DNA of 64,000 nucleotides from Escherichia phage vB_EcoM_TH18. Position 1 is the first letter of the stretch, and each line of letters opens with the position of its first letter. Below are positions 1,905 through 49,142 of the stretch, piece after piece. Location of the stretch: sequence record ON075799; one strand, given 5' to 3'. The notes under the pieces were generated by a model. That model saw only the letters and a list, made by a program, of their open reading frames with translations. It was not told the origin of the DNA and did no database searches. A program made the position numbers and the translations under genes.

Positions 1905-2160
1905 TATTGTCCCCTCAGTTCGCTACACTGAGGCGGTGTGCCAAGACACCCGCCACATGTTTCCATGTGGAACAGACTATATCTTCCATCCTTGGCGTGC
2001 CGTTTGGATCACCAATCGCTTGTGATTCTACTCTCCTACACTCATCGGAGATAGTCGTTACACCCAGATTTTATATTTCCATATTCTGTGGCACGGTATT
2101 TTCCCATAGGGAGTTCCACCGTTATAGGCACGAAGGGCAAGCTATTCACCCTGATGATCT
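1905..2160 (-). mobile_element. putative small group I intron, no ORF (boundaries approximate)
   Basis: ~250 nt non-coding insert between exons; same R-like (gatagtcgtt ~2052) and S-like (agactatatc ~1975) motifs as the other three intervening sequences. Confidence 0.45.
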
Positions 2161-3512
2161 AATTTGTTATTCTCATACTCCATGTGTCTCCACAACACCT
2201 TTGCCCCAGATGGGAAAATTGCTTCCAGAGCTTTCTCCCTGAACTTCGGCTTCCATTCCTTATCGAGTTGCAAATAAATACTTTTTGCTGTATCAAAAAG
2301 CCCACCTGCACCTGTCAATTGAGGTGTTGTCCTACGAAACATTATACATGCTGTCTGCGGGTCATCGACATAAGCAAGCGGCATCAATTGTAGGAGATAT
2401 GATTTTCCACTATTCCCAGTGACAACCACACAATCTTCTAGTCTGGTAACAAAGAAACCTGTTTGTGTTACAAAGCAGTATTTAAACCCATCCGTAGGTA
2501 TAAACTCTTTAAACTCAGCTTTTCTGTCTTTATTAGCCAGTGACCTTAATCCTTTTCCTCTAGCCATAATATTAACAGTATAACTGTCCTTTCCACTTCT
2601 TGTATCATGGTTTATGGTGGTATTATAACCAAGAGAAGATCCTACAAACTGAACAAAATCAGCGTTCATCTTATGGACAGTAAAATATCTACCTGTAAAG
2701 CTGTTATGTGTTTTACCGCCATATGGCTTACAAAAAGAACCATCCCAATGAAAAATCTCATCAAGTATTATCTCCAGTTGTTCATTTGAACACTGATAGT
2801 ATTTCTCTGTAAATTTTTTATCAGGATATTTAGGCCATACAATAACCTCGTACTGTTCCCCAGTGGTATATCTTTCACTGGGTTTTGATCCTCTATCTTC
2901 ATATCTTAATCCAAACTTTTTACAAAGTTCGATTAAGCGGTCATATTTACGCTTTTTAGCAAAGCGCATCTGTGTATAATTATCTTTCCCTTCTTTAACA
3001 ACTCTCCCATCAGCCATGACAGCAACCTGAAGCCGTAATTCCCCTTCTGTCATGTCTATCCCAGGACCATCATAGTTAAATGTAGTTATGAACTTACCTG
3101 TCCAACCTTTTTTAACAGAGTTGTTATGTCTTTCTGCCACTTCAGAAAAAGAAAGTGTTCTTGGCTGTGATTTATAGTCTGGTTTATAAATCACAGTATG
3201 TTCGTCAGATAGCTCTTGACAAATGCCATTACCTTCTATTCTTGTAAGTTTTTCGCAAGGGAGTTTAACAAACTCTAAAGGGGGGATAAATTTAGCCTCC
3301 CCAGTGGCTTTGTCATATTGCAGAATGTCCTGCCCTGACCATTCTGATATCTTAATCCAGCCAGATGGTGTCAACACCTCGTGGTCTTTAGACAAACACC
3401 CGGCGGCCCCACCAATTATTAGAATTTGGGCTTTACTCTCCAAAATCATTTTTTGCTTAGGACTGGCAGGTCCAAATACTTTACTCAAAAGACCTCCATA
3501 TTTTCTATTCAT
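2142..3512 (-). CDS. terminase large subunit-like protein, 5' exon, with in-frame intein
   Basis: N-terminus ...ILIIGGAAG then intein then SGKSYLLQLM: extein junction reconstitutes a GGAAGSGKS P-loop (Walker A). Confidence 0.6.
   Translation of the reverse strand: MNRKYGGLLSKVFGPASPKQKMILESKAQILIIGGAAGCLSKDHEVLTPSGWIKISEWSGQDILQYDKATGEAKFIPPLEFVKLPCEKLTRIEGNGICQELSDEHTVIYKPDYKSQPRTLSFSEVAERHNNSVKKGWTGKFITTFNYDGPGIDMTEGELRLQVAVMADGRVVKEGKDNYTQMRFAKKRKYDRLIELCKKFGLRYEDRGSKPSERYTTGEQYEVIVWPKYPDKKFTEKYYQCSNEQLEIILDEIFHWDGSFCKPYGGKTHNSFTGRYFTVHKMNADFVQFVGSSLGYNTTINHDTRSGKDSYTVNIMARGKGLRSLANKDRKAEFKEFIPTDGFKYCFVTQTGFFVTRLEDCVVVTGNSGKSYLLQLMPLAYVDDPQTACIMFRRTTPQLTGAGGLFDTAKSIYLQLDKEWKPKFREKALEAIFPSGAKVLWRHMEYENNKLDHQGE
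2412..3398 (-). mobile_element. putative intein with LAGLIDADG-type endonuclease domain (residues ~39-367)
   Basis: Begins CLSKDHEVLTP (block A-like), contains LQVAVMADGR and LEIILDEIFHWDGSF, ends ...VVVTGN before Ser+1; interrupts the P-loop. Confidence 0.6.
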
Positions 3513-5814: not shown

Positions 5815-5893
5815 TGGTTGCGAGTATTGGAATCGAACCTGCAATCTTCAGGGTATGAACCTAACATGGTAAATCCATTTCCACCAATCTGCA
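5815..5893 (-). tRNA. degenerate tRNA-like element (anticodon-loop CAU; weak acceptor and T stems)
   Basis: Canonical T-loop GGTTCGATTCC, D stem and anticodon arm TTAGG-TTCATAC-CCTGA present, but T stem and acceptor have several mismatches. Confidence 0.3.
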
Positions 5894-5899
5894 ATAATT

Positions 5900-5975
5900 T
5901 GGTGTGACGGACAGGATTCGAACCTGTGACCACCTAGTCTTCAGCAAGGCACTCTACCAACTGAGTTACCGTCAC
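5900..5975 (-). tRNA. tRNA-Phe (anticodon GAA)
   Basis: Manual cloverleaf: acceptor GTGACGG/CCGTCAC, D arm ACTC/GAGT, anticodon loop CTGAAGA, T loop TTCGAAT, encoded CCA. Confidence 0.8.
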
Positions 5976-5980
5976 ATAAT

Positions 5981-6057
5981 TGGTGGGCGATGAGGGACTC
6001 GAACCCCCAAAATTCAGGTTCTAAGCCTGACATGTATACCAATTCCATCAATCGCCC
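5981..6057 (-). tRNA. tRNA with anticodon UAG (Leu-reading) but short variable arm
   Basis: Acceptor GGGCGAT/ATCGCCC, anticodon arm TCAGG-CTTAGAA-CCTGA, T arm GGGGG-TTCGAGT-CCCTC, CCA encoded; D stem has one mismatch. Confidence 0.55.
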
Positions 6058-6071
6058 ATCTATATTAACAG

Positions 6072-6263
6072 TTATGGTTTTCCACGATACACAGAAATAG
6101 TTTTCCCATTAGCATTGATAACATAAGCGGTCTGATCCTCAGACAAAAACACTTTTTGATCAATGCCGGAAATAGCTATAGACTTTTGATGAGCACAATA
6201 CCCAACAATTTTCCCACAAAAAATTTGTTCATCATTTGGAGAGACGACTTTAACTGTTAACAT
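6072..6263 (-). CDS. small hypothetical protein (63 aa) inside the tRNA cluster
   Basis: Start refined to MLTVKVV with RBS agagga 6 nt upstream; the longer ORF-track start would overlap tRNA-Pro. Confidence 0.45.
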   Translation of the reverse strand: MLTVKVVSPNDEQIFCGKIVGYCAHQKSIAISGIDQKVFLSEDQTAYVINANGKTISVYRGKP

Positions 6264-6305
6264 GGTATCCTCTGTACATTTCTGCTTTGATATGTTTATG
6301 TTTGT

Positions 6306-6383
6306 TGGTCTGTCCGGTTGGATTTGAACCAACGACCTGGTCATCCCAAGTGACCCGCGCTACCCAAGCTGCGCTACGGACAG
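6306..6383 (-). tRNA. tRNA-Pro (anticodon UGG)
   Basis: Perfect cloverleaf: acceptor CTGTCCG/CGGACAG, D arm GCGC/GCGC, anticodon arm GGTCA-CTTGGGA-TGACC, T loop TTCAAAT, CCA encoded. Confidence 0.85.
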
Positions 6384-6467
6384 AGAAATGTAGATTTTAA
6401 TTGTCCCAGAATCTACTAACTGGTATCGCTGGCTAGGTGATATCTGTGACTTGATTAAGTCAAGAAT

Positions 6468-6559
6468 TGGCGGTTCCTGAAGGATTCGAACCTTCGGTGG
6501 GGAGATTCATTCCCAACGGCTTAACAGGCCGTCACCATCGACCACTCGGTCAAAGAACC
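6468..6559 (-). tRNA. type II (long variable arm) tRNA with anticodon GUU; identity uncertain
   Basis: 92 nt; acceptor GGTTCTT/AGGAACC (one G-U), anticodon arm ACGGC-CTGTTAA-GCCGT, ~20 nt variable arm, T arm GAAGG-TTCGAAT-CCTTC, CCA encoded. Confidence 0.55.
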
Positions 6560-6568
6560 TGAATATTT

Positions 6569-6645
6569 TGGTGGATCTGGTTGGGGTCGAACCAACAATC
6601 TCTCGATTAAAAGTCGAGTGACTTAAACCATTTGGCTACAAATCC
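6569..6645 (-). tRNA. tRNA-Lys (anticodon UUU), weak D arm
   Basis: Acceptor GGATTTG/CAGATCC, anticodon arm CTCGA-CTTTTAA-TCGAG, T arm GTTGG-TTCGACC-CCAAC, CCA encoded; D stem poorly paired. Confidence 0.55.
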
Positions 6646-6663
6646 GTTAAATTATCTTTAAAA

Positions 6664-6691
6664 TAGCTAATTACTCGCACATAATTAGCTA
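6664..6691 (-). terminator. hairpin plus U-run (terminator-like) within tRNA cluster
   Basis: Inverted repeat tagctaatt...aattagcta followed on the minus strand by TTTTAAAGA. Confidence 0.3.
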
Positions 6692-6878
6692 TACGCAACA
6701 ACTCTCCAAGGAGAGCACACTAATGATCGATTACGATTATATGACTAAATTTAGACCATCATAAGTGTTTGGCTTACGCCAGTAAAGAGCGGACTGCTCT
6801 GGGGTATCGGTAAGATGGTTGCAGCCATCTACCGAAAAATCACACCAAGCAACTAAACAAGCTACATTAAAGATAACT

Positions 6879-6967
6879 TGGAGGAGGCTGACAGAATCGA
6901 ACTGTCACCATATCTCTACAGCGGGACTGGGTTCAAACCAGCTTGTGCACCATGCACCCCAGCCTCC
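6879..6967 (-). tRNA. tRNA-Ser (anticodon UGA), type II
   Basis: 89 nt; acceptor GGAGGCT/AGCCTCC, anticodon arm GCTGG-TTTGAAC-CCAGT, long variable arm, T arm GACAG-TTCGATT-CTGTC, CCA encoded. Confidence 0.7.
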
Positions 6968-7038
6968 AAAGATAGCCTCTGCCGAGGATATACACCCAAC
7001 AAAGGAGGCGCTCAGGTCAGAAGAAATCTGAGCCTTAA

Positions 7039-7132
7039 TGGAGGAAGATGCCAGACTTGAACTGGCACACCCATTTCTGGGTTACTATCTCCTTAGCAGG
7101 GAGATCCCTTACCAAATTAGGGTTAATCTTCC
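7039..7132 (-). tRNA. tRNA-Ser (anticodon GCU), type II
   Basis: 94 nt; acceptor GGAAGAT/ATCTTCC, 3-bp D stem, anticodon arm TCTCC-CTGCTAA-GGAGA, T arm GCCAG-TTCAAGT-CTGGC, CCA encoded. Confidence 0.75.
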
Positions 7133-7153
7133 AATACCTTAGTAATTAAAAAC

Positions 7154-7243
7154 TGGTGGAGAAGGAGAGAATCGAACTCTCAAGCCGTTTTACCAGTCAG
7201 CACATTTCCAATGTGCTTTCGTCGCCAATCGATTTGCTTCTCC
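7154..7243 (-). tRNA. tRNA-Ser (anticodon GGA), type II
   Basis: 90 nt; acceptor GGAGAAG/CTTCTCC, anticodon arm GCACA-TTGGAAA-TGTGC, long variable arm, T arm GAGAG-TTCGATT-CTCTC, CCA encoded. Confidence 0.65.
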
Positions 7244-7252
7244 GTTTTAACT

Positions 7253-7328
7253 TGGCAGGGGATGGTTGATTCGAACAACCGATCACGGGGTCAAAGCCCG
7301 TTGCATTAGGCCACTATGCTAATCCCCT
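7253..7328 (-). tRNA. tRNA-Gln (anticodon UUG)
   Basis: Perfect cloverleaf: acceptor AGGGGAT/ATCCCCT, D arm GCAT/ATGC, anticodon arm ACGGG-CTTTGAC-CCCGT, T loop TTCGAAT, CCA encoded. Confidence 0.85.
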
Positions 7329-7333
7329 TTTGC

Positions 7334-7410
7334 ACGAGAGTGAGGAATAGAACCTCTTAGTCACTGGTTTTGGAGGCCAGCCTTCACCCAGTGAAGTTAC
7401 GCTACTCTCA
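7334..7410 (-). tRNA. non-canonical tRNA-like element
   Basis: Good acceptor (TGAGAGT/ACTCTCG) and T-loop-like GGTTCTATTCC, but D and anticodon regions do not fold into standard arms; no encoded CCA. Confidence 0.3.
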
Positions 7411-7417
7411 TTAAAAA

Positions 7418-7975
7418 CTATTTTCGAAAAGGACTTATGAAAAATGCCAACATCACTCTCTCTCTTGAAAAAGCTCTGTCTTCAGGAACCACACTCTTCA
7501 GTTTCCAACCGACATAAATTCGCCAGTAAAATTGTTTTCCAAACAATCTAAAAGACGGGACAAACGCGAATACACCCCACGCATTGTCATTCCACATCAA
7601 CAAATAGCCTTGTTGGTTATCCTCCACATCAGAGCTTACATGGAGGTTTCCTTTCCACTTTGTCACAGATGTGATTTCACGTCCAAGTACGTGATAGGAG
7701 AAATTGTAGGCTTTATTTCTCCACAACCAAGCAACTCGTTGTAGGTAAACACCAAAACTTCCTATTTTACGGACTTCTTCCCATCTCTCTATGTGTCCTC
7801 TATCACCGTCTATAGGATTATCATATGTCTCCATCCACCTGAAAATATAAGGCAGATGCCCTGTCTTCTCATTATAGAACGGAACAACAAAAGGAGCCAG
7901 AATAACACAGAGAACCGACATAACTGGGTCAAGAGGTGCTAACAGGATCCACGATAAATATTTTAAGTATCTCAT
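7418..7975 (-). CDS. hypothetical protein (185 aa, hydrophobic N-terminus)
   Basis: ORF from six-frame track; start overlaps stop of upstream gene (ATGA). Confidence 0.5.
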   Translation of the reverse strand: MRYLKYLSWILLAPLDPVMSVLCVILAPFVVPFYNEKTGHLPYIFRWMETYDNPIDGDRGHIERWEEVRKIGSFGVYLQRVAWLWRNKAYNFSYHVLGREITSVTKWKGNLHVSSDVEDNQQGYLLMWNDNAWGVFAFVPSFRLFGKQFYWRIYVGWKLKSVVPEDRAFSRERVMLAFFISPFRK

Positions 7976-8202
7976 GCAGGATCAAGCCTAGATATAATGT
8001 ACTGGTTTAAATCTGAATATGGGAAGATACTTTCAAAGATAACCTGTTTAAATCTGAAGCCGCACAAACCGAAAAGTACCTTCTGACACTCACCAAAAGA
8101 GCAATCTTTACCAACTTTTATCACAACCGTATCGGCAATCTGCACACTTTCTATCTCTTTAGATTCATGATGCCGTACTATGATTACTTTAGAAACCATC
8201 AT
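7972..8202 (-). CDS. hypothetical protein (76 aa)
   Basis: ORF from six-frame track; translationally coupled to downstream gene. Confidence 0.45.
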   Translation of the reverse strand: MMVSKVIIVRHHESKEIESVQIADTVVIKVGKDCSFGECQKVLFGLCGFRFKQVIFESIFPYSDLNQYIISRLDPA

Positions 8203-8327
8203 ACTCGTCCATATTAAAGCCTTCTACTAAAGATAGTAGATGTCTAGGGTTGGACCGCAAACGCAACCCCATGGAATTTGTTACGGTCTTCAGTTGACCC
8301 AAGCGGATTTCATTGACATCTTTTAAC

Positions 8328-8402
8328 TGGAGCATCCAGAGGGTATCGAACCCTCGACTTCAGCTTGGAAGGCTGTAGTTTTCCCAATTAAACTATGGAT
8401 GC
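8328..8402 (-). tRNA. tRNA-Gly (anticodon UCC)
   Basis: Acceptor GCATCCA/TGGATGC, D arm GTTT/AAAC, anticodon arm (A)CAGC-CTTCCAA-GCTG, T arm GAGGG-TTCGATA-CCCTC, CCA encoded. Confidence 0.75.
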
Positions 8403-8407
8403 ATATT

Positions 8408-8483
8408 TGGTGGGAGTGGTAGGCTCTGCCCCTACGTCCTCTCGATTATCGGTCGAGCGATCTACTAACTGATCTACACTCCC
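8408..8483 (-). tRNA. tRNA-like cloverleaf with Ile-type anticodon GAU but non-canonical D and T loops and C at position 33
   Basis: All four stems perfectly paired, CCA encoded, but D loop AGTTAGTA lacks GG, T loop is GGCAGAG (no TTC), anticodon loop is CCGATAA. Confidence 0.5.
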
Positions 8484-8546
8484 AAACTGTACTGGCCCAA
8501 CAACCACGATTGGAGGGTATCGTCACACATCAAAGCCAGTACAGTT
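8484..8546. other. long perfect hairpin (13-bp stem, ~37-nt loop) between two tRNA genes
   Basis: aaactgtactggc (8484-8496) and gccagtacagttt (8534-8546) are exact reverse complements. Confidence 0.6.
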
Positions 8547-8551
8547 TTAGT

Positions 8552-8641
8552 TGGTGTGCCGTGATAGAGTCGAACTACCCGAGTCCCTTTCGAGACAGGA
8601 GATTTACAGTCTCCCCCGCTACCCCTACGGTCTAACGACAC
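8552..8641 (-). tRNA. tRNA-Tyr (anticodon GUA), type II
   Basis: 90 nt; acceptor GTGTCGT/ACGGCAC (one G-U), anticodon arm GGAGA-CTGTAAA-TCTCC, long variable arm, T loop TTCGACT, CCA encoded. Confidence 0.7.
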
Positions 8642-8642
8642 A

Positions 8643-8990
8643 TTAACCTTGTTTGAATTGAACAATATCCGTCGAGAACGGTTTAGCTGCCTTAATAGGT
8701 GCTTTTTCTGAGTTATCTTTTTCGAGTAACTCTTCGTTTTCCTCATCAAAGTAATCAGAAAGCATCTGCTCACCTTTCTCAATAACATAACGAGCTATAT
8801 TTTCTCTGATATTGTCTTTTGTATTCACATTCTTCATCAAATCCCTAAGAACCTGATGAGCTTCAGGAATCATTGCAATCAGATTCGTTTTTAAATCTAG
8901 GATATTTTTCTCTAACTGAATTGCATTAGATTCCTCTTTCAGAGGACGACCTTTTCCTCTTCTACGTTTTGTAAGCTGCTTAGTAGCCAT
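8643..8990 (-). CDS. hypothetical protein (116 aa, basic N-terminus)
   Basis: Start refined to MATKQLTKRRRGKG; the longer ORF-track N-terminus overlaps the tRNA cluster; sigma70-like promoter just upstream. Confidence 0.5.
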   Translation of the reverse strand: MATKQLTKRRRGKGRPLKEESNAIQLEKNILDLKTNLIAMIPEAHQVLRDLMKNVNTKDNIRENIARYVIEKGEQMLSDYFDEENEELLEKDNSEKAPIKAAKPFSTDIVQFKQG

Positions 8991-9009
8991 TTTAAAACCC
9001 CACTTAATG

Positions 9010-9039
9010 ATATTATCAAATAAAAACATATCTGTCAAG
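9010..9039 (-). promoter_or_regulatory. sigma70-like promoter (TTGACA, 18-nt spacer, TAATAT)
   Basis: Minus strand reads TTGACA...TAATAT shortly upstream of the ATG at 8990. Confidence 0.5.
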
Positions 9040-9075
9040 TGGTATTTTAACATATTTACCAAGAAATTGAAAGTT

Positions 9076-9152
9076 TGGAGCACGGTGTCGGACTTGAACC
9101 GACATATATCTGTTTTGCAGACAGATCCGTAACCAAATTCCAGCAACCGTGC
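9076..9152 (-). tRNA. tRNA-Cys (anticodon GCA)
   Basis: Acceptor GCACGGT/ACCGTGC, anticodon arm TCTGT-CTGCAAA-ACAGA, T arm GTCGG-TTCAAGT-CCGAC, CCA encoded; D stem weak. Confidence 0.65.
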
Positions 9153-9228
9153 AATAAGTACCCCAGGTAGAGAACCTATAGAGTGGGTCTTACGAGCCGC
9201 GCTGACGATTCTCAAGTTGGGGTTAATC

Positions 9229-9305
9229 TGGTCGAGGAGACAGGATTCGAACCTGTGACCTACGGCTTAGAAGGCCGCTGCTCTATCCAACTGAGCTACA
9301 CCCCG
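9229..9305 (-). tRNA. tRNA-Arg (anticodon UCU)
   Basis: D arm GCTC-AGTTGGATA-GAGC, anticodon arm GCGGC-CTTCTAA-GCCGT, T arm ACAGG-TTCGAAT-CCTGT, CCA encoded; acceptor has one mismatch. Confidence 0.7.
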
Positions 9306-9505
9306 AAAATAAGAATGCTTTATAGTGTATGGTTACTCAACCTCACTCCAACTTCCACAGTTGGTGCTCTACGAGCATGACTACGTTTGAAATCAACGTT
9401 GCGCACCGATAGCTTTCTCACGCATTGTATGCCTCATTCCCAACAAATGCTGATCAGACATTTATATCGAATAATATAAGCTAATACACTATAAAACAAA
9501 CTTGT

Positions 9506-9602
9506 GGCTGGGTGATGGAATCGAACCACCTATGTATTCAACGGCTTCCCCGTCTATTTTCAGGATTATAAATCCTCGCCCTTGCCAAAGGGCTTACCCA
9601 GC
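9506..9602 (-). tRNA. over-long (97 nt) tRNA-like element, anticodon arm ambiguous
   Basis: Perfect acceptor (GCTGGGT/ACCCAGC), D arm GCCC-TTTGGCAA-GGGC, T arm GGTGG-TTCGATT-CCATC; central region has only a 4-bp stem with loop TTTATAA and ~30 extra nt; no encoded CCA. Confidence 0.35.
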
Positions 9603-9604
9603 AT

Positions 9605-9679
9605 TGGTGCTCGCAGCAGGTTTCGAACCTGCAACCCCCTGCTTACAAGGCAGGTGCTCTACCGTTGAGCTATACGAGC
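9605..9679 (-). tRNA. tRNA-Thr (anticodon UGU)
   Basis: Acceptor GCTCGTA/TGCGAGC, D arm GCTC/GAGC, anticodon arm CCTGC-CTTGTAA-GCAGG, T arm GCAGG-TTCGAAA-CCTGC, CCA encoded. Confidence 0.85.
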
Positions 9680-10044
9680 AATAAGACATTGCTTCCGATT
9701 AACAGCCTTGAGGCTTTACAGACCATATCTTGTGAGCCATAACCTGTGCCAAGGATTTCAGATGATAAACGAAATTTTATCTTTCAAGAGTCAACTTTCA
9801 AGTTTCATCTTTTACATTTAACCATTGACCTTTATTGTATGAACTTTTACTTAGTGGAAACAACAAGGCATCTTCGTGTGCCTCGCTGCATCTATGTCCT
9901 GTATTATCCTCATACATATACGATACATGGTGGGGGATATTTAACCTCCAACCCCCAGGAGGCAAGATGATGTAAACTTCGTTAATCAAAAGCAATGTTT
10001 TAAATTTCAAAACAAAGGAACGATAATGATATTATCAGAGCCTT

Positions 10045-10692
10045 TTAGAGAGAGTGCTCAATCTCAATTTCTGTCTTAGCGTTTGACTCAGACAACGCAA
10101 AATCAACGTTAGACAAGAAATCTTCAATCTCTTCTTCAAGAGAACGAATCTTAGAAGCCAGTTCAAGAGGATCCACAACCGATGGTGTGTTCATCATTCG
10201 AATAGGAGCTTCCACAGTCTTAATCTGCTCTGCATCTGGCGCTTTATCACGTTGGATATATGGCGCTCTTGCATTTTCAAGTTTATCTTCCAGAGATTTT
10301 TCTTCTTTTGCCAGAAGAAGCTGTGCAGAAGCACGCTGTGCACAAAGTTTGTTTAACAACTCTTGTTTAAAGCAAATCGTCCGTTTGCGTTCGATTGCCT
10401 CAGCAACTGTCATAGACACATTACCAATTTTGACAATTGTCTCAGCATTAGACTTAACAATTTTTGCTTTCAGTTCATCACGCACTGCCAAGAGGTCTTG
10501 CAGACTTTGATAGTCGTTGATCGCAGATTTCTTAAAATCATCAACAGAGCCGATATAACCCGGAATCTTACAATTATTCTCAGTTCCTTTTGCAATCTTA
10601 ATACAATCAAGATTGTAGATACGCTTATTGATCTTATCTTCAATTTTAGAGATAGAAGCAAGTGCACGAGTTACGGAAATCTTAGTAGACAT
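10045..10692 (-). CDS. hypothetical protein (215 aa, charged coiled-coil-like)
   Basis: ORF from six-frame track; charged, heptad-like composition. Confidence 0.55.
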   Translation of the reverse strand: MSTKISVTRALASISKIEDKINKRIYNLDCIKIAKGTENNCKIPGYIGSVDDFKKSAINDYQSLQDLLAVRDELKAKIVKSNAETIVKIGNVSMTVAEAIERKRTICFKQELLNKLCAQRASAQLLLAKEEKSLEDKLENARAPYIQRDKAPDAEQIKTVEAPIRMMNTPSVVDPLELASKIRSLEEEIEDFLSNVDFALSESNAKTEIEIEHSL

Positions 10693-10765
10693 GCGATCTC
10701 TCCTATGTAAATCAGCTTTGATAAAGTAACTATCCAGAAAAACAAAAACTATGTCAAGAAAAATT

Positions 10766-10957
10766 TTAATCTTTTACAGCATCTTTTATAGAATCACAAA
10801 GATCTTGAACAACATCAGATGTCGGTGACAAAATCATCTCGTCGGCTGCTGCTATAGCATCTGATGCTAAATCAACAAACGGAGTTGTTACCGCAGAAGT
10901 CACTTCAACAGCCGTTATTGTTACTTCGCTTGCAATCTTAAGCAAAGATCCTATCAT
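10766..10957 (-). CDS. hypothetical small acidic protein (63 aa)
   Basis: ORF from six-frame track in an otherwise gene-free gap. Confidence 0.4.
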   Translation of the reverse strand: MIGSLLKIASEVTITAVEVTSAVTTPFVDLASDAIAAADEMILSPTSDVVQDLCDSIKDAVKD

Positions 10958-11033
10958 AATCTCAACCCTCCTGAATATCCGTGATTCCCTTTATTTAACG
11001 ACGCTGGCTCACGGTGGCACTCTCGTCAATAAA

Positions 11034-11357
11034 CTATTTTTTAGTTTTCTTACCGTTTTCTACAGAAATGCTTGTTTTCTGTTTCGCTTCTCGTTCGCGC
11101 TTTGTTTTCCCAGTGCGAATACGATATGAAGCAGAAATAACTTCACCACCAATGACACGAGACACAGATTCGTAATACATTTCAGTATTACCGTCTTCAT
11201 CTTTGCGTTTTTTCAGAACTGCTACAGTTTGCGTTTTACCACCAAGGCGCACATCGTGCGGTGCAGAATGTGTCTGCGTGGATTTTGATCCAAACTGAAA
11301 AGGTTGCTTTATCGCCTCGATAGCTGACACCTTTTTAGCAGACTGTTTCTTAGCCAT
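11034..11357 (-). CDS. hypothetical basic protein (107 aa)
   Basis: Start refined to MAKKQSAKK with strong RBS ggagga upstream; lysine/arginine-rich. Confidence 0.55.
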   Translation of the reverse strand: MAKKQSAKKVSAIEAIKQPFQFGSKSTQTHSAPHDVRLGGKTQTVAVLKKRKDEDGNTEMYYESVSRVIGGEVISASYRIRTGKTKREREAKQKTSISVENGKKTKK

Positions 11358-11408
11358 TAAGTTTTCTCCTCCGAAAACAATAAACATAGTTTATTTCGTG
11401 TGCCACAT

Positions 11409-11485
11409 TTGGTGGCCCCTGCTGGACTTGAACCAGCGACCAAGCGATTATGAGTCACCTGCTCTATCCAACTGAGCTAAGGGGC
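11409..11485 (-). tRNA. tRNA-Met (anticodon CAU; initiator/elongator/Ile2 not distinguished)
   Basis: Acceptor GGCCCCT/AGGGGCC, D arm GCTC-AGTTGGATA-GAGC, anticodon loop CTCATAA, T arm GCTGG-TTCAAGT-CCAGC, CCA encoded. Confidence 0.8.
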
Positions 11486-11818
11486 CGAATCTCTTAATAT
11501 GAGATGATATTATCCTGTATGATCTACATTGTCAAGAGATATTTTAAAATTTTATACATCCCAGTTTTCTTCTTGATAACAACCTTCCCCGAATCCAACT
11601 TCTTTTTCAAAATCAATACCTTTTTTCATACATTCCTCACATTAACAGATATTGTTTTCAAACTCAAAACGTAAAATACGAACTCTGTCAATACACTGCT
11701 GTAATCTACAAAGCAACAACTCAACTTGTTTATGCGTCTCTTCAGTATACGTTTTGGTCATCTTGCTTTTCTCCGTGATCTTTTCATTGCAGCTTCTGCA
11801 CGTCTTTGTTTACGATTT

Positions 11819-15382: not shown

Positions 15383-15452
15383 CGAGAATGCTACTCATAA
15401 CACCACACAATGTCAACCCCTCCCATATGTCCCCATTTCAGGGACATTATGA

Positions 15453-15540
15453 TCTAATATAATATATATTATATAATATAATTTAATATAATACTACGTA
15501 TTATATATATTATAATATATATATATAATTTATATAAAAT
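15453..15540. repeat. AT-only low-complexity repeat tract (TA/ATA-type)
   Basis: ~90 nt of taatataatatatattatataatataatttaatataat... between divergent gene blocks. Confidence 0.8.
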
Positions 15541-15640
15541 ACACTAAGTCTTGAAGAATGTCAAGACTTGATTTTAAATATTTTTGTTGATATGATTCGA
15601 TTGAGTCGAATCGTATGGTTCGATGATTTCGAATCATAGA
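15541..15640. promoter_or_regulatory. cluster of palindromes at the divergent intergenic region
   Basis: agtcttga-agaatg-tcaagact, gattcga-ttgag-tcgaatc and atgattTCGAAtcat dyads next to the AT tract. Confidence 0.5.
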
Positions 15641-15976
15641 GTTCATGTTGTTTTGCCTGAAATCGTGAGTCGATGAGACTCTTCAGGCAATACGTGAGTG
15701 TGTAAGATGCTCACTGCGCTGATAGCTTGTGATCATCTAACCCTCATGAGCCATTCTGAGATAAACCCACATCAACAAACCCCACAGGTTTGTCTCTGTG
15801 TGTTAATCTCAATCATGGATTCGGGTTGTCACAAGTCACTATGTGACTCTGTGTGGGGATTTCGAATGTGTACCGGAGCATGGCGCACAGGACTGGTTCA
15901 TCTGTCCGTCTCAACTGGGGCGCGGCGGGGGTTAAGGTTTAGTTTTACGTTTTGTGTGGGTGTGGAGGAGAGTTTT

Positions 15977-28741: not shown

Positions 28742-28750
28742 GATAGTACA

Positions 28751-28779
28751 AAGGGCGCTTAATGCGCCCTTTCTTTTTG
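28751..28779 (+). terminator. strong rho-independent terminator closing the plus-strand block
   Basis: aagggcgc-ttaa-tgcgccctt followed by TTCTTTTT. Confidence 0.75.
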
Positions 28780-29165
28780 CCCTAACAAACATGATAAGTT
28801 TTATCTATCAAAACACCACACAGAAAGAAAGTGAATAAAACGCGGTATCGAGCTAAACGAGGGTGGGCAATACAACGGCAAGGCTAAACAATTAAGGCTG
28901 TTATAACGCGATTTAGGCCGCTTAAAATCGATCCCCACCACAAACAACACCCACAAAATGACCAAAACGACACAACATGACTTAAATGATAACCATTCCC
29001 AACAACATAAGCATTTTTATGCAATTTGAGTGAATATCTATTTAAATGATAATGACTCTCAACAACAAACTAACACGACCGAAGCGATTCAATCGCCTAC
29101 CACAAAATTAATCACTTGTAAAGAGTAATTTGAAAAAAGCTGCGTAGGTGGCGCGACCGTAGGGA

Positions 29166-29440
29166 GCGACACAATAACGCAGTAGTAGCCCCTCACCCCT
29201 CCTTCCAGTCGCCCCCGGTATCGGGGCAGCGTTATTGTGTCGCTAAGCGACAACGCGTTAACAATTTTGCAAGATTTTATTAATACTTTAACTGTTATAA
29301 TTTTATTGCAAAATTGTTAACCTACTGCGTTATTGTGTCACGTAGTGATTAGTTACATATGTAACTAACAGCTATCACTGCAAAATTGTGTCACGTAGTG
29401 ATTAGCTGAGAATCAGCTAACCCGTAAAACGGGCTAAATT
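29166..29440. repeat. cluster of inverted and direct repeats flanking an AT-rich core (candidate origin or regulatory hub)
   Basis: gcgacacaataacgcagtag at 29166-29185 with reverse-complement copies at 29229-29243 and 29321-29340; 16-bp dyad 29257-29272/29306-29321; direct repeat attgtgtcacgtagtgattag at 29332 and 29385; palindromes gttacatatgtaac and agctgagaatcagct. Confidence 0.7.
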
Positions 29441-30604
29441 GTGTCCGGTACGGATGAGATAATCTCTCATTAATCCCCGATTATTACGCAGTAAATCACC
29501 ATGAATCACCTGTTTTTAACCCTGTTATTGTGTTCTTGCCCAGGGATAACCGCTTACTATGCGGTTAAATGCTGTATAGTCGCTACGCGATTAAGCGCGA
29601 TGCGCTTAACCTGCAAAGCAGGCTTCTAAGTGCCTGAAATGCCAGATCAATTTGGTCACTGCGTGATCATGATTGCGACAATAATTTGCTTATGATTTGC
29701 TATTTATTTGTTTGTAGTTGGTTATAGTTGTTATGGTTTGTTTGTTAATAGTTGCTATAATTTTGCTTTATTTGATTTTATTTGTTAAACACCCTTTTAT
29801 CATTCCTCTTACATTTTCGCAATATTTATTTTTGTTATCGTTTTCCCTCATTTCATTTCGTTATTGAAAACAAGAATTATTATCAATGCGCCTTAACAGG
29901 CTGACAGGTCTGTTAGTGGGCTAGCTCTCTGTGTGGTTATGTGTCGGCTGTTATTGTTAGCTTGCTTATTGTTGTGTGGTGTATGTACCAGTTAACTAGT
30001 ACATTGTGTGGTGCGCATAACGTGTATTATGTTAAATCGCTAAGCCCACAAATCAGGTGACTTGTCAATAACAATAAGTGCTGTGTGCGGTAGGTCTGAC
30101 CTATCAGTGTGCCCCTTTGTTGTGTGGTGCTTCCAATGGCTGGTCTGCCTGCTGTCTGTGCTGCGTCAGGAATCGAGGGGACTCGATCGCAATAGCTGTA
30201 AGATATTTTGTAAAGATTCGTAGTTTTTCTTGACACCCACAATCGTCTGCCTAACCCTTCAGAGATAAATACTTCAGAGATTTATCTGGGCTTTTTACCC
30301 TTCAGGTATAGAGACGTGTGTTTTATCCCTCACTTCTGAGATAAAGCCGTAGATATTTTCACTCTTCACATCATGTGCAAGTTAATACATGTATGTCTTT
30401 ACAGACGGGGTGGGGTAACAATCAGGAAGTGGTCTGGCAGTGATAACGCACTGGATAAAAGCTCTGTGTGGATTGTCGATGATATTTGTGTGTGTGGGAA
30501 ATGCTGATAGGCAAGAGATAAGACACTTGTCTCCGGCAGGGGTGGGGTGTGGAAAAGAAATGGGCCTGTCCGACCCATTGTGTTACAGAGATGAAACGCC
30601 TATC

Positions 30605-30856
30605 TCACCATTGACCAGGTAAGCCAATATCAAGGCCAAATTCGTGACATTCATCCCAGTCAAGACTTTGATTCCAGTTTGTAACTGTTTGCTCTGTGTG
30701 GTGGGTGTGTGATGCTCTCTGTGACTGCTTGGGCATCTTTTTTGTCTGGGATTTCCCGAAGAGAGGTGTGTTGTCATTAAGTCTTCCGGCAGCCTTTTCA
30801 CCCTTTTTGACTTGTCTCCCACGGGCATTCCACTGCTCCAGTGTCCTGTAACACAT
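30605..30856 (-). CDS. possible small basic protein (83 aa)
   Basis: ORF with aggaga RBS ~9 nt upstream; lies in an otherwise low-complexity non-coding region. Confidence 0.3.
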   Translation of the reverse strand: MCYRTLEQWNARGRQVKKGEKAAGRLNDNTPLFGKSQTKKMPKQSQRASHTHHTEQTVTNWNQSLDWDECHEFGLDIGLPGQW

Positions 30857-31247
30857 AAAATGATTCTCCTGTAATATCTGGTGTGGGAATGATAGTGGAG
30901 AATGTCAGTCGTGTCAAGTAGGTTGCTCAGAGGCGCTATTATAAAAATTTTTTGGTGGCTTTCTGGGGCTTGTTGTGGGACTGTAAACAAGCTGTGGAGC
31001 CAGATGTGACGGGGCTTTCAGCCATGTTGTGTGTTGATAGCAAATAAGGATAAAATAATCAATATAAATGCGGATAAATGTTGTTTTATTGCGGTTGTGT
31101 GACTAGTGTGTCAATTCTTGATAGGCTATGTCTTGTACATATTTTGTACAATTGTGTGGTGTGTGGAGTTTGGGTGGCAATTCCCCAGACGGGGTAGGGT
31201 AGGTTATGGTGGGGAGCAGGGGCATGGTTAGCCCCATATGATCAGGG

Positions 31248-31565
31248 TTATGCGTCTGTTTGTTTGAACTGGTCTTTTGAACGTATTATATAGCTGCATC
31301 CGTATTTTCTTAGCCAGACAAGTTCCCATGGACTATCACTCAGGTTCTTCCTGTTTATCTCTTTTAGCTGGGCAACCGCATCGTCCCATGATGTGACTTC
31401 GAGATAACCGATAAGACAGTCCTCTCCAAAATCTCCGTAATCAAATGTGCATCTGACCTTGGCGATAAACTCTGTTTGTGGGCTTGTTGGTTTTACAAAA
31501 GCCCGGTGAAAGATTTGTTCTGTGCAGTGCTCATTAACCCATCTGATTTGTGTGGTCATAATCAC
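31248..31565 (-). CDS. hypothetical protein (105 aa)
   Basis: ORF from six-frame track; last gene of the minus-strand block. Confidence 0.55.
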   Translation of the reverse strand: MIMTTQIRWVNEHCTEQIFHRAFVKPTSPQTEFIAKVRCTFDYGDFGEDCLIGYLEVTSWDDAVAQLKEINRKNLSDSPWELVWLRKYGCSYIIRSKDQFKQTDA

Positions 31566-47753: not shown

Positions 47754-47985
47754 TCCCGCACCACTACGTGCTGCTGCATGTCACCATGCAGACCAGACCA
47801 TATCTTCATGCTTAAAGCATGTCTGCCGTTTGGGGTGTCATCAGCTTACACTCTACATCCCTACATTCATCAGGATTGGTCGTTAGGCATTTACGGTTGA
47901 TACCGATTTAGCACGGGATTCCCTCCATAGAGGATTCCCCCGTTTAGGCAGATTTTACATGAGCAGTTATAGTTTACCCATGCTT
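47726..47985 (-). mobile_element. putative group I intron in nrdD (no ORF; boundaries approximate)
   Basis: Non-coding insert with a 38-nt block (47755-47792) identical to one in the terminase intron (609-646); S-like agaccatatc and R-like ggtcgtta elements. Confidence 0.5.
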
Positions 47986-49142
47986 GTAACACGCCCGTCT
48001 GAAGAACCTGTTACCTTTTTATTCAACGGTACAGATATGAAATCTGGATAAATCCTTTCAACACAACACTCCATGGCTAATTGCTTTAAGTCGTAGTTGG
48101 GATCGCCAGGTTTCATGTTTACACCATCTTCCAAGAAGAAGATAACTTTTGGAAAAACAGGTGTGACTTTGTCTTTGCCAAGTCCGTTTTTGTGAACAAG
48201 AAGATAATTCTTTGTAATCATTCTCCCAAAATAGGAAGTATCAAGCCCAAGACTCAAGGTGATAAATGGGCATTGACCGTTAGCACTCATCAAGGTATTT
48301 ACCTGATAAAGCAATGTCTGCATAGCATCGTAAACATCTTTTTCCGTCATCTGCATAGCTACACCTTCTGGGTCTGGCAGCCATTGCTCCTGACAAAATT
48401 TTAGATTTTTATCGTAACTTGCCTTGGCATATTGTTTTAATCCTTCATCAATATGGGTGTATGACTGACCACCATATTGAACCGAAGAAACTGATTGGGA
48501 TATCTGGCTAAGAATGGTACAGGCAACACCTATCGATTTCGGCTTTTCTATTTTTGCATTGCCAATTTTAAAACCGTTCTCCAACATATCCCTATAATTT
48601 ACAAGACTGCAATTAGTTAATGGGCTTATCAAATAATCTAAGTCATGTATATGACCATAACCATTTGTATGCCATTCAGCCAATTCTTTTGGTAGAATTT
48701 GAGTTAGTGAGACGTGCTTGCTAAGGATACCCGCGAGAAGATCACGATGGCTACTAACCACCCCACTTGGTTTATTAGCGTTTTCTTTAGTAAATTCATC
48801 GGCAGTTTGTTCTAAGAATCCCGTAATATCTGCAAACAGTTTTCCTTTACCTTCCCTAACGTTATCACGCGTTTTACGATATTCAATATACGCCCGTGCA
48901 GCGTTCTTGAGGTCAAGATCCATTAGTGAATCTTCCACAATGCGGTGAATATCACAAACAGCCACTTTCTCTTGCGGTGGTTCTGATTTTTCCAGAGTTT
49001 CATAGGCTTGCTCGCCAACTGCACACGCCAGAGGATATGATTTCTCACCATAACCAGCAGCAATTAAAGCGGCTTCTGCCGCTTTAATAACTTTCACACC
49101 ATCATAATCTTCTTCACGCCCATCACGTTTAACAACTTTCAT
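47967..49142 (-). CDS. nrdD: anaerobic ribonucleotide reductase NrdD, 5' exon (N-terminal region)
   Basis: N-terminus MKVVKRDGREEDYDGVKVIKAAEAA (ATP-cone-like); ORF 3' end likely runs a few codons into the intron. Confidence 0.75.
   Translation of the reverse strand: MKVVKRDGREEDYDGVKVIKAAEAALIAAGYGEKSYPLACAVGEQAYETLEKSEPPQEKVAVCDIHRIVEDSLMDLDLKNAARAYIEYRKTRDNVREGKGKLFADITGFLEQTADEFTKENANKPSGVVSSHRDLLAGILSKHVSLTQILPKELAEWHTNGYGHIHDLDYLISPLTNCSLVNYRDMLENGFKIGNAKIEKPKSIGVACTILSQISQSVSSVQYGGQSYTHIDEGLKQYAKASYDKNLKFCQEQWLPDPEGVAMQMTEKDVYDAMQTLLYQVNTLMSANGQCPFITLSLGLDTSYFGRMITKNYLLVHKNGLGKDKVTPVFPKVIFFLEDGVNMKPGDPNYDLKQLAMECCVERIYPDFISVPLNKKVTGSSDGRVTSMGKL

Follow-up and report, generated by a model that had tools for sequence, protein, structure and literature searches.

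The concatemer junction of phages T7 and T3 carries a right-end secondary origin/promoter, phiOR, and repeat arrays flanking the terminal repeat; further details of this junction are said to go back to Dunn & Studier in 1983 and Chung & Hinkle in 1990. In T5, the injection-stop-signal region reportedly forms an extensive non-coding stretch of repeats and palindromes within the terminal repeat, as Davison is said to have described in 2015. In the known pac sites (SPP1 pacL/pacR, P1 pac, lambda cosB), short repeats are clustered near the packaging cleavage site; tens to ~200 bp separate them from the cut, and it is as double-stranded DNA that they are recognised. Iteron origins (lambda ori and others of plasmids and phages) combine helically phased short motifs with an adjacent AT-rich tract. 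The ssi and sso elements (G4/phiX-type ssi, plasmid sso) are imperfect nested hairpins of 150-250 nt with strictly DNA-level pairing, which are active only as single-stranded DNA and belong to ssDNA phages and rolling-circle plasmids. For T7-type phages, a hairpin intermediate has been described in the duplication of the terminal repeat (PMC4281155).

Phages of the rV5-like group (Vequintavirinae, Phapecoctavirus and relatives) are frequent candidates for therapy and biocontrol; for this group, the replication origin, the packaging signal and even the ends of the genome have been defined poorly and annotated inconsistently. The window, i.e. the whole stretch of 64 kb analysed here, is DNA of an Avunavirus-like (rV5-related) phage and contains a dense repeat cluster in an ORF-free gap of 1.86 kb (28742-30604), with convergent terminators at both edges. 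The left terminator has a 9-bp stem with 6 GC pairs and a CTTTTTG tail, and was kept in Av-05, L021 and L025, where loop and stem differ by compensatory changes. A placement in non-coding DNA between convergent transcription units, as proposed in the first-pass annotation, was thus borne out by the ORF-free gap with its intrinsic-terminator-like sites on both sides; the extent proposed there applied to a part only, the gap being larger than described and the repeat family running on to ~29690. The coordinates of all features are collected in Table 1.

The A/C-rich flank holds 58-60-nt direct repeats (28930-49/28988-29007 and 28982-29007/29042-67), and the GC skew left of the box was negative in 8/8 lineages compared. 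No tRNA or tmRNA was found in the gap. Small ORFs in it (29089-29253 on the minus strand, 29501-29629 on the plus strand, and others) were rejected as genes, close relatives carrying indels of 1, 2 and 53 nt there. The ORFs flanking the gap matched only families of unknown function (DUF551, YunG-like).

Table 1. Features of the gap and its repeat cluster, in coordinates of the 64-kb window.
Feature	Position	Strand	Remarks
Intrinsic-terminator-like hairpin with T-run	28750..28782	+	left edge of gap, end of rightward gene block
A/C-rich, G-poor flank with direct repeats	28800..29110		A 129, C 73, G 45, T 64
GC-rich box, GGTGGCGCGACCGTAGGGAGCGACAC	29147..29172	+	100% conserved among Avunavirus-like sequences
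Outer inverted repeat, left arm L, GACACAATAACGCAGTAG	29168..29185		18 bp, 100% complementary to R2
Inner inverted copy R1, GCGTTATTGTGTCGCT	29229..29244		16 nt, 100% complementary to 29165-29180
16-bp inverted repeat with spacer	29257..29321		spacer 33 nt, 12% G+C
Outer inverted repeat, right arm R2, CTACTGCGTTATTGTGTC	29322..29339		18 nt
Three tandem 53-bp modules (29332-84, 29385-437, 29438-90)	29332..29490	+
Further three-hairpin module M6	29574..29626	+	exact structural register with 29385-29437, stem sequences differ
Conserved block with degenerate arm-motif copies (ACTGCGTGAT, 29658-67; GCGACAATAA, 29676-85)	29625..29690
T/G-rich tract of degenerate repeats, 61% T, 3% C	29690..29786		adjoins predicted terminal repeat
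Predicted direct terminal repeat, 464 bp	29788..30251		by homology
Intrinsic-terminator-like hairpin	30550..30579	-	right edge of gap, end of leftward gene block

Every repeat that the first-pass annotation had named was recovered at its position. Three copies of GCGACACAATAACGCAGTAG are present, one direct (29166-29185) and two inverted (29229-29244 and 29322-29339). A perfect 16-bp inverted repeat (29257-29272/29306-29321) surrounds the 33-nt AT-rich spacer, in which TGTTATAAT lies at 29293-29301; among the Avunavirus-like sequences its arms are invariant and the spacer is variable. The 21-nt direct repeat ATTGTGTCACGTAGTGATTAG occurs at 29332-52 and 29385-405 and belongs to a four-copy family with spacings of 98, 53 and 53 nt, and perfect short hairpins are formed at 29213-26, 29238-52, 29349-68, 29402-20 and 29421-33. 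The arms L and R2 are separated by 136 nt and enclose R1 and the perfect 16-bp AT-rich palindrome. R2 is 100% conserved across all Avunavirus-like sequences; R1 carries a G-to-A change in L021, L024 and L025 and thus appears less constrained than R2.

The density of repeats is far beyond chance. The motif WWATTGTGTC occurs six times in the 64-kb window, with 1.0 expected, and five of the six copies fall within 29168-29445. Folding of 29140-29640 gave z values of -9.3 for DNA, -9.4 for plus-strand RNA and -8.6 for minus-strand RNA, and no shuffle of this segment folded as well as the native sequence. The motifs and modules of the cluster were found at one locus only in the window. A CRISPR-like mini-array was rejected, since the repeat units are non-identical and the would-be spacers are themselves hairpins or palindromes; so was a MITE or invertible segment, the element being syntenic across genera with no recombinase nearby.

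The core of the cluster consists of the box fused to the 18-bp long-range inverted repeat L/R2, and both recur in at least eight phage lineages across two subfamilies. They lie in ORF-free gaps in Avunavirus, Septuagintavirus, Mydovirus, Seunavirus, Henunavirus, ChuuTotoro and KLEP7, and a diverged form is carried by Phapecoctavirus. The box is near-identical in Septuagintavirus, Mydovirus, Seunavirus, Serratia phage ChuuTotoro and Pseudaeromonas phage KLEP7, and recognisable though diverged in Hena1 and in Phapecoctavirus Mt1B1_P17. Scanning metagenomes and viral contigs with the box yielded three more Avunavirus-like sequences; a match in L020 was due to chance in GC-rich DNA and was discarded. 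The homologous gap of rV5-type Vequintavirus was not found: sought via the flanking proteins, the trail ended in Phapecoctavirus for the left flank and in unrelated phages for the right. Searches of the literature on Vequintavirinae termini, origins and transcriptomes brought up no description of an element made of this box and repeat.

In 11/11 arm variants found across loci, the two arms, 71-231 nt apart, were complementary at every position of their paired length. In a covariation alignment of ten variants over 18 fixed positions (180 cells), 98.3% of the cells were paired and 13 of the 18 pairs had changed on both sides, with no one-sided change and 0/180 G-U pairs. The observed pairing was reached by 0/500 shuffles, and slid controls were 30-56% paired. 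Double changes at 13/18 pairs and the lack of G-U pairs point to pairing at the DNA level. Among close Mydovirus genomes, the distal arm positions read GAGAG/CTCTC, GGGAG/CTCCC, GAGGG/CCCTC or CTAGGG/CCCTAG, which argues for selection on pairing and not on a protein's sequence readout. Judged from these alignments, the strict Watson-Crick covariation is more suggestive of pairing within a DNA strand than of a plain protein-binding array. Perfect inverted repeats can also be maintained by template switching or gene conversion without structural selection.

Right of the core, each 53-bp module is composed of ATTGTGTC, a hairpin with a 4-bp stem and 3-nt loop, and an 8-bp hairpin; module 2 (29385-437) has an additional 5-bp hairpin with an AAA loop. 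Copies of ATTGTGTC lie at 29232, 29330, 29383 and 29436, again spaced by 98, 53 and 53 nt. Other genera retain only the inverted pair without multiple ATTGTGTC copies, and the tandem three-hairpin modules, variable in number, are specific to this lineage in the sequences compared.

To place the cluster relative to the genome end, the window was compared with relatives whose terminal repeats are annotated. The boundaries in the window, TTGTTA|AACAC and GTCTGCC|TAACCC, match those of phage DP (GTGTTA|AACAC and GTCCGTC|TAGCAC) and of Hena1 (GTGCTA|AACAC and GTCCGTC|TAACAG), and a terminal repeat is therefore predicted at the corresponding positions. The left boundary of DP was set by the conserved TA|AACAC, since global alignment misplaced it in the low-complexity T/G tract; in the window, this tract (29690-29786) is hypervariable in length and sequence. 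The predicted repeat contains an ultraconserved 31-mer at 30007-30037, which in Hena1 falls inside the annotated 'direct terminal repeat 1', and GATATTTTGTAAAGAT at 30202-30217. By this homology the phage would have a 464-bp terminal repeat, with virion ends predicted at 29788 and 30251, ~350 bp right of the cluster; these are concrete, testable coordinates for the putative physical ends of this genome.

Terminal repeats are on record for relatives, with 514 bp in KPP-1 (from coverage and PhageTerm) and 475 bp in Jab. Where direct terminal repeats are documented (DP/KPP-1, Hena1, Mt1B1_P17), the element always lies 0.3-0.5 kb to the left: in DP, the box is 460 nt left of the annotated 514-bp repeat, in Hena1, 523 nt left of the annotated 519-bp repeat, and the Mt1B1_P17 record has an exact 328-bp terminal repeat that starts 188 nt after the right arm. 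In the window, 350-630 bp lie between the cluster and the predicted left cut. Over all, the distance from element to cut varies from 188 to 640 nt (188 to ~450 nt from the right arm), and indels, of 53 nt and others, shift it between and within genera, even among near-identical phages. Some PhageTerm reports call Vequintavirus genomes circularly permuted, and given these calls the packaging mode across the subfamily is not uniform or settled.

Tentatively, and with somewhat less than even confidence, we read the cluster as the Avunavirus version of a conserved, cis-acting DNA structural element of the genome-end (concatemer-junction) region. This reading is favoured because every related lineage examined has kept the core, with compensatory changes, because in relatives with documented ends the core is always found immediately left of the direct terminal repeat, and because the motifs at the repeat boundaries and the internal 31-mer are conserved in the window. 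The element more likely serves finishing, copying or packaging of the DNA end than main replication origin function. Its order is the box with the long-range repeat, the enclosed second dyad, an AT-rich or repeat-rich stretch and then the terminal repeat, which here is predicted, and in this lineage the R2 motif and hairpins have been amplified into the phased 53-bp three-hairpin modules. Upon strand separation near the right genome end, each strand would fold into a nested hairpin, and hairpin and adjoining box together would be the cis signal for genome-end maturation; both hairpin formation in vivo and this role are what we infer. The hairpin signal might trigger or boost the action of terminase on the concatemer or, alternatively, prime the DNA synthesis that duplicates the terminal repeat. 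The cuts themselves are probably specified by separate conserved motifs at 29787|29788 and 30251|30252, and since both predicted cut sites are so marked, the cluster is probably not the cleavage site itself. If required in cis, the element would be the handle needed for engineering, for vectors used in transduction or packaging and for linearising genomes of this phage group correctly; it would also be an uncommon example of structural selection acting on a hairpin of DNA, not RNA, in a large dsDNA phage. At any rate it is a conserved non-coding element near predicted genome ends, with unusually clean compensatory evolution in at least eight lineages.

A parallel would be the right end of T7, where an origin/promoter close to the end, repeat arrays and a hairpin intermediate occur beside the terminal repeat. 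As in T7-type concatemer junctions, non-coding repeat arrays and a hairpin-forming inverted repeat lie directly inboard of the right-hand terminal repeat, the inverted repeat a few hundred bp to its left; the terminal repeat is short and exact (here by prediction), and origin-like and packaging functions plausibly overlap. Unlike T7/T3, the locus has no sequence similarity to them and no known phage RNA polymerase promoter, its terminal repeat is of ~464 bp versus 160 bp, and it has a nested dyad with perfect 16-22-bp arms 71-231 nt apart and the conserved GC-rich box. With the T5 block it shares a large ORF-free extent near a genome end, dense direct and inverted repeats with palindromes, and conservation in the group; the block of T5 is contained in a 10-kb terminal repeat and has DnaA boxes, whereas the block described here is outside a repeat of ~0.46 kb and without them.

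Several observations stand against the genome-end reading. For a terminase-binding site of the classical kind, the distance from cluster to cut is large and loosely kept. The repeat itself contains better-conserved candidates for recognition, the 31-mer (30007-37) and GATATTTTGTAAAGAT. Box, dyad, AT-rich tract and a local skew switch would suit an origin equally well.

The first-pass annotation had proposed an origin or packaging-type hub, to be recognised by a skew inflection or terminus at the site and by repeats conserved in related phages. Cumulative GC skew over the 64-kb window does have an inflection near the cluster, the repeats are conserved in relatives and a terminus is predicted nearby. 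The proposal is partly supported: a link of the cluster to the genome terminus gains evidence, and the specific reading as an iteron origin is weakened. That the cluster is a replication origin, primary or end-proximal and secondary, is the main alternative, possible but rather unlikely; a packaging role could coexist with it, as at the right end of T7. Initiator binding or transcription would open the box and dyads, the AT spacer would melt, hairpins would extrude and leading-strand synthesis would begin on both strands. In line with this, the layout of GC-rich box, inverted repeat and AT-rich tract is conserved in all lineages, with AT-rich DNA following the right arm in each; in the window, the AT-rich tract adjoins the repeats, the spacer of 12% G+C lies between perfect dyads, and the ATTGTGTC copies are phased at 53 bp, i.e. 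~5 helical turns. Exactly at the element, C>G gives way to G>C in the GC skew and A>T to T>A in the AT skew, with the same sign in 8/8 lineages. The pentamer GTGTC is a preferred recognition sequence of T7 primase, and these phages carry T7-like family A polymerase genes, as the annotation of Av-05 also indicates; both would fit an origin.

Several findings oppose this. Over the 64 kb, which is all that the skew covers, the site is near the cumulative GC-skew maximum (~31 kb) and not the minimum (15-16 kb). The minimum coincides with a divergent intergenic region with ~95 nt of almost pure A+T tract and many hairpins, and a separate and much stronger AT-rich origin candidate lies there, at 15.45 kb. 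Scans of the 1.86-kb gap for DnaA, IHF and GATC sites returned one relaxed DnaA box, no IHF site and no enrichment, and a recognisable initiator gene is absent beside the gap. Iteron multiplicity is restricted to Avunavirus-like phages and, in contrast to iteron origins, the copies here are mostly inverted and covary as pairs. The local skew might alternatively reflect C-rich, G-poor Rho-utilisation-like zones that face transcription from both sides.

An improbable variant of the genome-end reading would be a structured-DNA initiation element. When the right end is single-stranded, the hairpin and flanking GTGTC would guide priming or a fold-back synthesis by which the terminal repeat is copied, coupling end replication to packaging across Vequintavirinae and Stephanstirmvirinae. 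With its imperfect nested hairpins of 150-250 nt, strictly DNA-level pairing and putative activity as single-stranded DNA, the element is akin to ssi and sso elements, with no sequence similarity seen, and no such role is known in large dsDNA myoviruses; an element of this kind would be one not yet described in large dsDNA phages.

It is quite improbable that the cluster is the recognition site proper of the terminase small subunit, of pac type, at which a protein would read the box and ATTGTGTC as double-stranded DNA and cleavage would follow ~0.4-1.1 kb downstream. The constant side and orientation relative to documented terminal repeats, the strong conservation of the box among phages with related terminases and the phasing of the repeats on one helix face agree with such a site. 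The distance to the cut is larger than at known pac sites and is variable, with indels even among near-identical phages, and the arms diverge completely between lineages, changing sequence freely, yet stay complementary, which is unexpected for the site of a conserved protein. Moreover, the cut sites and the repeat interior have conserved motifs of their own.

Very unlikely, in our estimate, is a structured non-coding RNA (or several) or a transcription-control region, for instance a hairpin-rich transcript started at a promoter in the AT spacer, or insulator or terminator hairpins. For both strands, the energy of RNA folding departs strongly from random, TGTTATAAT in the spacer is a perfect extended -10 element, and one module of Av-05 has a U-G pair (n = 1). 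Against this, both strands fold equally well and the conserved stem lacks G-U in all 180 cells, no Rfam family reached its gathering threshold in the gap, and in a permissive Rfam search the cluster was overlapped only by sub-threshold microRNA-precursor (hairpin) models. The sigma-70 scan found 7 promoter-like sites, with 6.4 expected from shuffles; by hand inspection, the lineages share no promoter upstream of the box, L021 and L025 have lost the TG of the extended -10 element, and the hairpins are without T-runs.

Equally small is the chance that the lineage-specific part, i.e. the 53-bp modules and extra inverted copies, consists of palindromic repeats without function that propagate themselves, a non-coding gap tolerating what slippage, template switching or unequal recombination produce. 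In favour of this, modules appear, disappear and change place among close relatives, Mydovirus hairpins show loop inversions (TCC vs GGA) and 29500-29625 is wholly replaced between relatives. Against it, the box and outer repeat, conserved across two subfamilies, would be left unexplained, ~3 phased copies are retained per Avunavirus-like sequence though individual modules differ, and double changes maintain the hairpin stems. When the three-hairpin modules were compared, 17/17 pairs were formed in all rows and 8 pairs had changed on both sides, so the module structure is kept while the stems change. Close relatives gain or lose modules as 53-nt indels. Av-05 has the M6 module within its AT spacer and carries an extra unit, and the window has one unit that is absent from the others.

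Sequence inspection and a repeat search recovered all repeats and dyads that the first-pass annotation had placed in the cluster, the repeat-dense non-coding region under study. Its location in non-coding DNA between convergent transcription units was likewise borne out, since it lies in an ORF-free gap with genes running rightward on the left and leftward on the right, and a terminator-like hairpin closes each gene block. The repeat signal is well above chance, with WWATTGTGTC occurring six times in the 64-kb window (1.0 expected) and five of the six copies falling within 29168-29445. Fold z-scores for 29140-29640 were -9.3 as DNA and -9.4 and -8.6 as RNA of the two strands, and the cluster also holds numerous short perfect hairpins. 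Scans of the gap for Rfam families, tRNAs, DnaA-box clusters and IHF sites were negative, and its flanking ORFs had no recognisable replication or packaging function.

Features of the cluster and of the terminal-repeat region (window coordinates unless a phage is named; slashes within sequences mark repeat boundaries)
Feature	Position	Description
GCGACACAATAACGCAGTAG	29166-29185	direct copy
Inverted copies of GCGACACAATAACGCAGTAG	29229-29244 (R1) and 29322-29339 (R2)	16 nt and 18 nt, both 100% complementary
AT dyad (perfect 16-bp inverted repeat)	29257-29272 / 29306-29321	33-nt spacer, 12% G+C; arms invariant or nearly so among close relatives, spacer varies freely
21-nt direct repeat	29332-29352 and 29385-29405	part of four-copy family, spacings 98, 53 and 53 nt
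GC-rich box	29147-29172	invariant or nearly so among close relatives
L arm and distal partner R2	29168-29185 and 29322-29339	invariant or nearly so among close relatives
ORF-free gap	28742-30604	1.86 kb, contains cluster
Predicted terminal repeat	29788-30251	464 bp
Predicted left boundary	29787/29788	TTGTTA/AACAC
Predicted right boundary	30251/30252	GTCTGCC/TAACCC
DP repeat boundaries		left GTGTTA/AACAC, right GTCCGTC/TAGCAC
Hena1 repeat boundaries		left GTGCTA/AACAC, right GTCCGTC/TAACAG

The source phage is Avunavirus-like, among the rV5-related phages. Over the cluster region, three partial Escherichia phage records (18-1-2, 19-1-2 and 24-2-1) are identical to it and Av-05 (KM190144) is ~90% identical. 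Right of the gap, Av-05 carries plus-strand tail and baseplate genes from ~41.7 kb, whereas leftward nucleotide-metabolism genes continue in the window; compared with the window genome, the 120.9-kb Av-05 record may contain a rearrangement or an assembly error, and the 18-1-2 scaffolds total ~134 kb.

A search with 29130-29260 as query retrieved 54 phage records that contain the box. It sits in a long ORF-free gap in every lineage inspected, namely Septuagintavirus (A5-4), Mydovirus (DP, KPP-1, KP12), Seunavirus (4MG, LNA4), Henunavirus (Hena1), Serratia phage ChuuTotoro, Pseudaeromonas phage KLEP7 and, in a diverged form, Phapecoctavirus (Mt1B1_P17). In every lineage inspected, the sequence into which the box continues is matched by a perfect complement 71-231 nt downstream; the arm sequences vary freely from lineage to lineage and differ even between near-identical Mydovirus genomes (GAGAG/CTCTC, GGGAG/CTCCC, GAGGG/CCCTC, CTAGGG/CCCTAG). 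In an alignment of 10 arm variants, 98.3% of cells were paired and 13 of the 18 pairs had changed on both sides, with zero one-sided changes and zero G-U pairs; no shuffle matched these values, and slid alignments were 30-56% paired. This perfect complementarity and the double changes identify L and R2 as the conserved pair in the window, with R1 and the AT dyad both inside its loop. An inner dyad is present in the loop of other lineages as well, e.g., Hena1 (GCGTTATCGTGGC / GCCACGATAACGC), so that the nested dyads of the first-pass annotation represent a conserved theme beyond the window's own lineage. Its proposed check for the repeats in related phages revealed the box and outer inverted repeat to be conserved across genera and the 53-bp modules, hairpin units to the right of R2, to be apparently lineage-specific. 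With no G-U pairs, both strands folding equally and neither promoter nor terminator present, the pairing appears to matter in DNA rather than in RNA, and intrastrand DNA pairing is probably what is selected; possibly, the arms are instead kept identical through homogenisation by template switching. The distance between the arms makes extrusion from duplex DNA unlikely, which points to an element active in single-stranded DNA.

Within the loop that the conserved arms enclose in Mydovirus sequences L008 (3040-3065), L007 and L023, the hairpin following the box is swapped between close relatives with its structure kept (AAATGATAA-TCC-TTATCATTT versus AATGCGA-ACAAA-TCGCATT), and in one Mydovirus contig its loop is inverted from TCC to GGA, as is characteristic of template switching at palindromes. 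A Mydovirus AATGATAAT..ATTATC-like sequence is similar to a Fur box, perhaps by coincidence.

DP, Hena1 and Mt1B1_P17 agree in the side and orientation of box and inverted repeat relative to the terminal repeat, with the box on the left, 460, 523 and 333 nt from the repeat's left boundary, respectively. The two ends of the DP record are annotated with identical 514-bp repeat_region features, the Hena1 record has annotated 519-bp direct terminal repeats, and in the Mt1B1_P17 record the opening 328 bp recur exactly at the end. A 514-bp direct terminal repeat was reported for KPP-1 from coverage and PhageTerm (PMC9862379), and a 475-bp repeat for phage Jab by CheckV (PMC13538427). Conserved boundary motifs predict the terminal repeat of the window, and the cluster would thus lie 350-630 bp inboard of the right-hand repeat. 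In agreement with this prediction, the predicted left boundary is the exact point at which hypervariable sequence gives way to high conservation among Avunavirus-like sequences, and the 31-mer TGTGGTGCGCATAACGTGTATTATGTTAAAT (30007-30037) falls within Hena1 'direct terminal repeat 1'. Cronobacter GAP31, Salmonella SPLA5a and Enterobacter EC152 share this 31-mer with 100% identity; it is the most conserved non-coding sequence of the gap and, inside the predicted repeat, a candidate for recognition by the terminase. The two predicted boundaries share a short motif (TA/AACAC left, C/TAAC.. right), likewise in DP, Hena1 and 4MG; Mt1B1_P17 also shares a motif, but a different one (G/AGCAT, T/AAGCAC). 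This suggests that a single sequence-specific nuclease may make both cuts.

The 9-mer TTGTAAAGA occurs at 29116-29124, ~30 nt upstream of the box, and again at 30208-30216, where it forms part of GATATTTTGTAAAGAT, a sequence conserved across genera, and precedes the predicted right boundary by ~40 nt. Several copies of GATATTT(T/G)G were seen right of the terminal repeat in several genera.

The cluster very probably belongs to a conserved element adjoining the terminal repeat. Repeat-rich non-coding DNA beside terminal repeats is of an already known kind; for the box and covarying nested dyad common to Vequintavirinae, Phapecoctavirus and KLEP7, no description was found in the searchable literature. 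Taking as a parallel the right end of T7, for which there is a report of a hairpin intermediate (PMC4281155), we tentatively read the cluster as an expanded version, in this lineage, of a conserved DNA-level nested-hairpin concatemer-junction element acting in cis in genome-end maturation. That the element serves end maturation rather than as primary origin is plausible, if slightly short of an even chance. It would initiate or enhance packaging or, alternatively, prime synthesis duplicating the terminal repeat.

A replication origin at the cluster, possibly additional to another role, is rather unlikely. The proposed GC-skew check, run on the 64-kb window, spoke both ways: an inflection lies near the cluster, and the local skew (300-nt resolution) switches as an origin would give, from C>G and A>T on the left to G>C and T>A on the right, with the same sign in 8/8 lineages. 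At 2-kb resolution, however, cumulative GC skew is lowest at 15-16 kb and peaks near 31 kb, and the cluster lies at a terminus-like inflection following gene orientation. Nor is the local polarity decisive, as it would equally fit C-rich, G-poor Rho-utilisation-like zones facing transcription from both sides. A stronger origin candidate on classical criteria, alternatively an early-promoter candidate, lies at 15440-15720 in the divergent intergenic region at the skew minimum. There, an almost pure A+T, TA-repeat-like tract of ~95 nt (15447-15545) precedes five or more perfect hairpins, the densest hairpin region of the window.

The scaffolds of 18-1-2, 19-1-2 and 24-2-1 break in or near this tract (18-1-2 at 15447/15448). 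ACCACACA(A/G) motifs, which could be phage-specific regulatory motifs, cluster on the minus strand at 29936-31166 (plus strand: TGTGTGG), coinciding with anomalously positive GC skew of up to +0.45 at 30950-31249, even across leftward genes; plus-strand copies lie at 28816, 15150 and 15403.

A classical double-stranded terminase binding site at the cluster is improbable. A non-coding RNA or a role in transcription control is very improbable.

In an alignment of the window, Av-05 and three Avunavirus-like metagenome contigs, the fluid parts of the cluster changed by 53-nt steps. Av-05 has a 53-nt hairpin module inserted within the AT spacer, which the window carries at 29574-29626; an extra ATTGTGTC unit is present in all aligned relatives and absent from the window, and one unit of the window is absent from the relatives. 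The stretch 29500-29625 is wholly replaced between relatives, and the T/G-rich tract 29690-29786 is hypervariable. Each unit consists of ATTGTGTC, a 4-bp hairpin with a 3-nt loop and an 8-bp hairpin, with a 5-bp/AAA-loop hairpin added in full units. Units 29385-29437 and 29574-29626 align structurally in perfect register with different stem sequences, and in the unit alignment 17/17 pairs formed in all rows, eight having changed on both sides. A functionless palindromic repeat expansion, proposed for these apparently lineage-specific three-hairpin modules only, is given little credence.

Elsewhere in the window, large-terminase families match only the last ~125 residues (331-455) of ORF 2142-3512 (minus strand), whose residues 15-373 are spanned by a PhoH-like ATPase family, and the next ORF downstream (743-1528, minus strand) encodes an HNH homing endonuclease. 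The partial match and this neighbour suggest that a homing-endonuclease insertion may interrupt or split the terminase gene. A group I intron (47774-48014, minus strand, 79.8 bits) abuts an NrdD-like anaerobic ribonucleotide reductase ORF (47967-49142), and 16 tRNA genes are clustered at 5815-11486 (minus strand).
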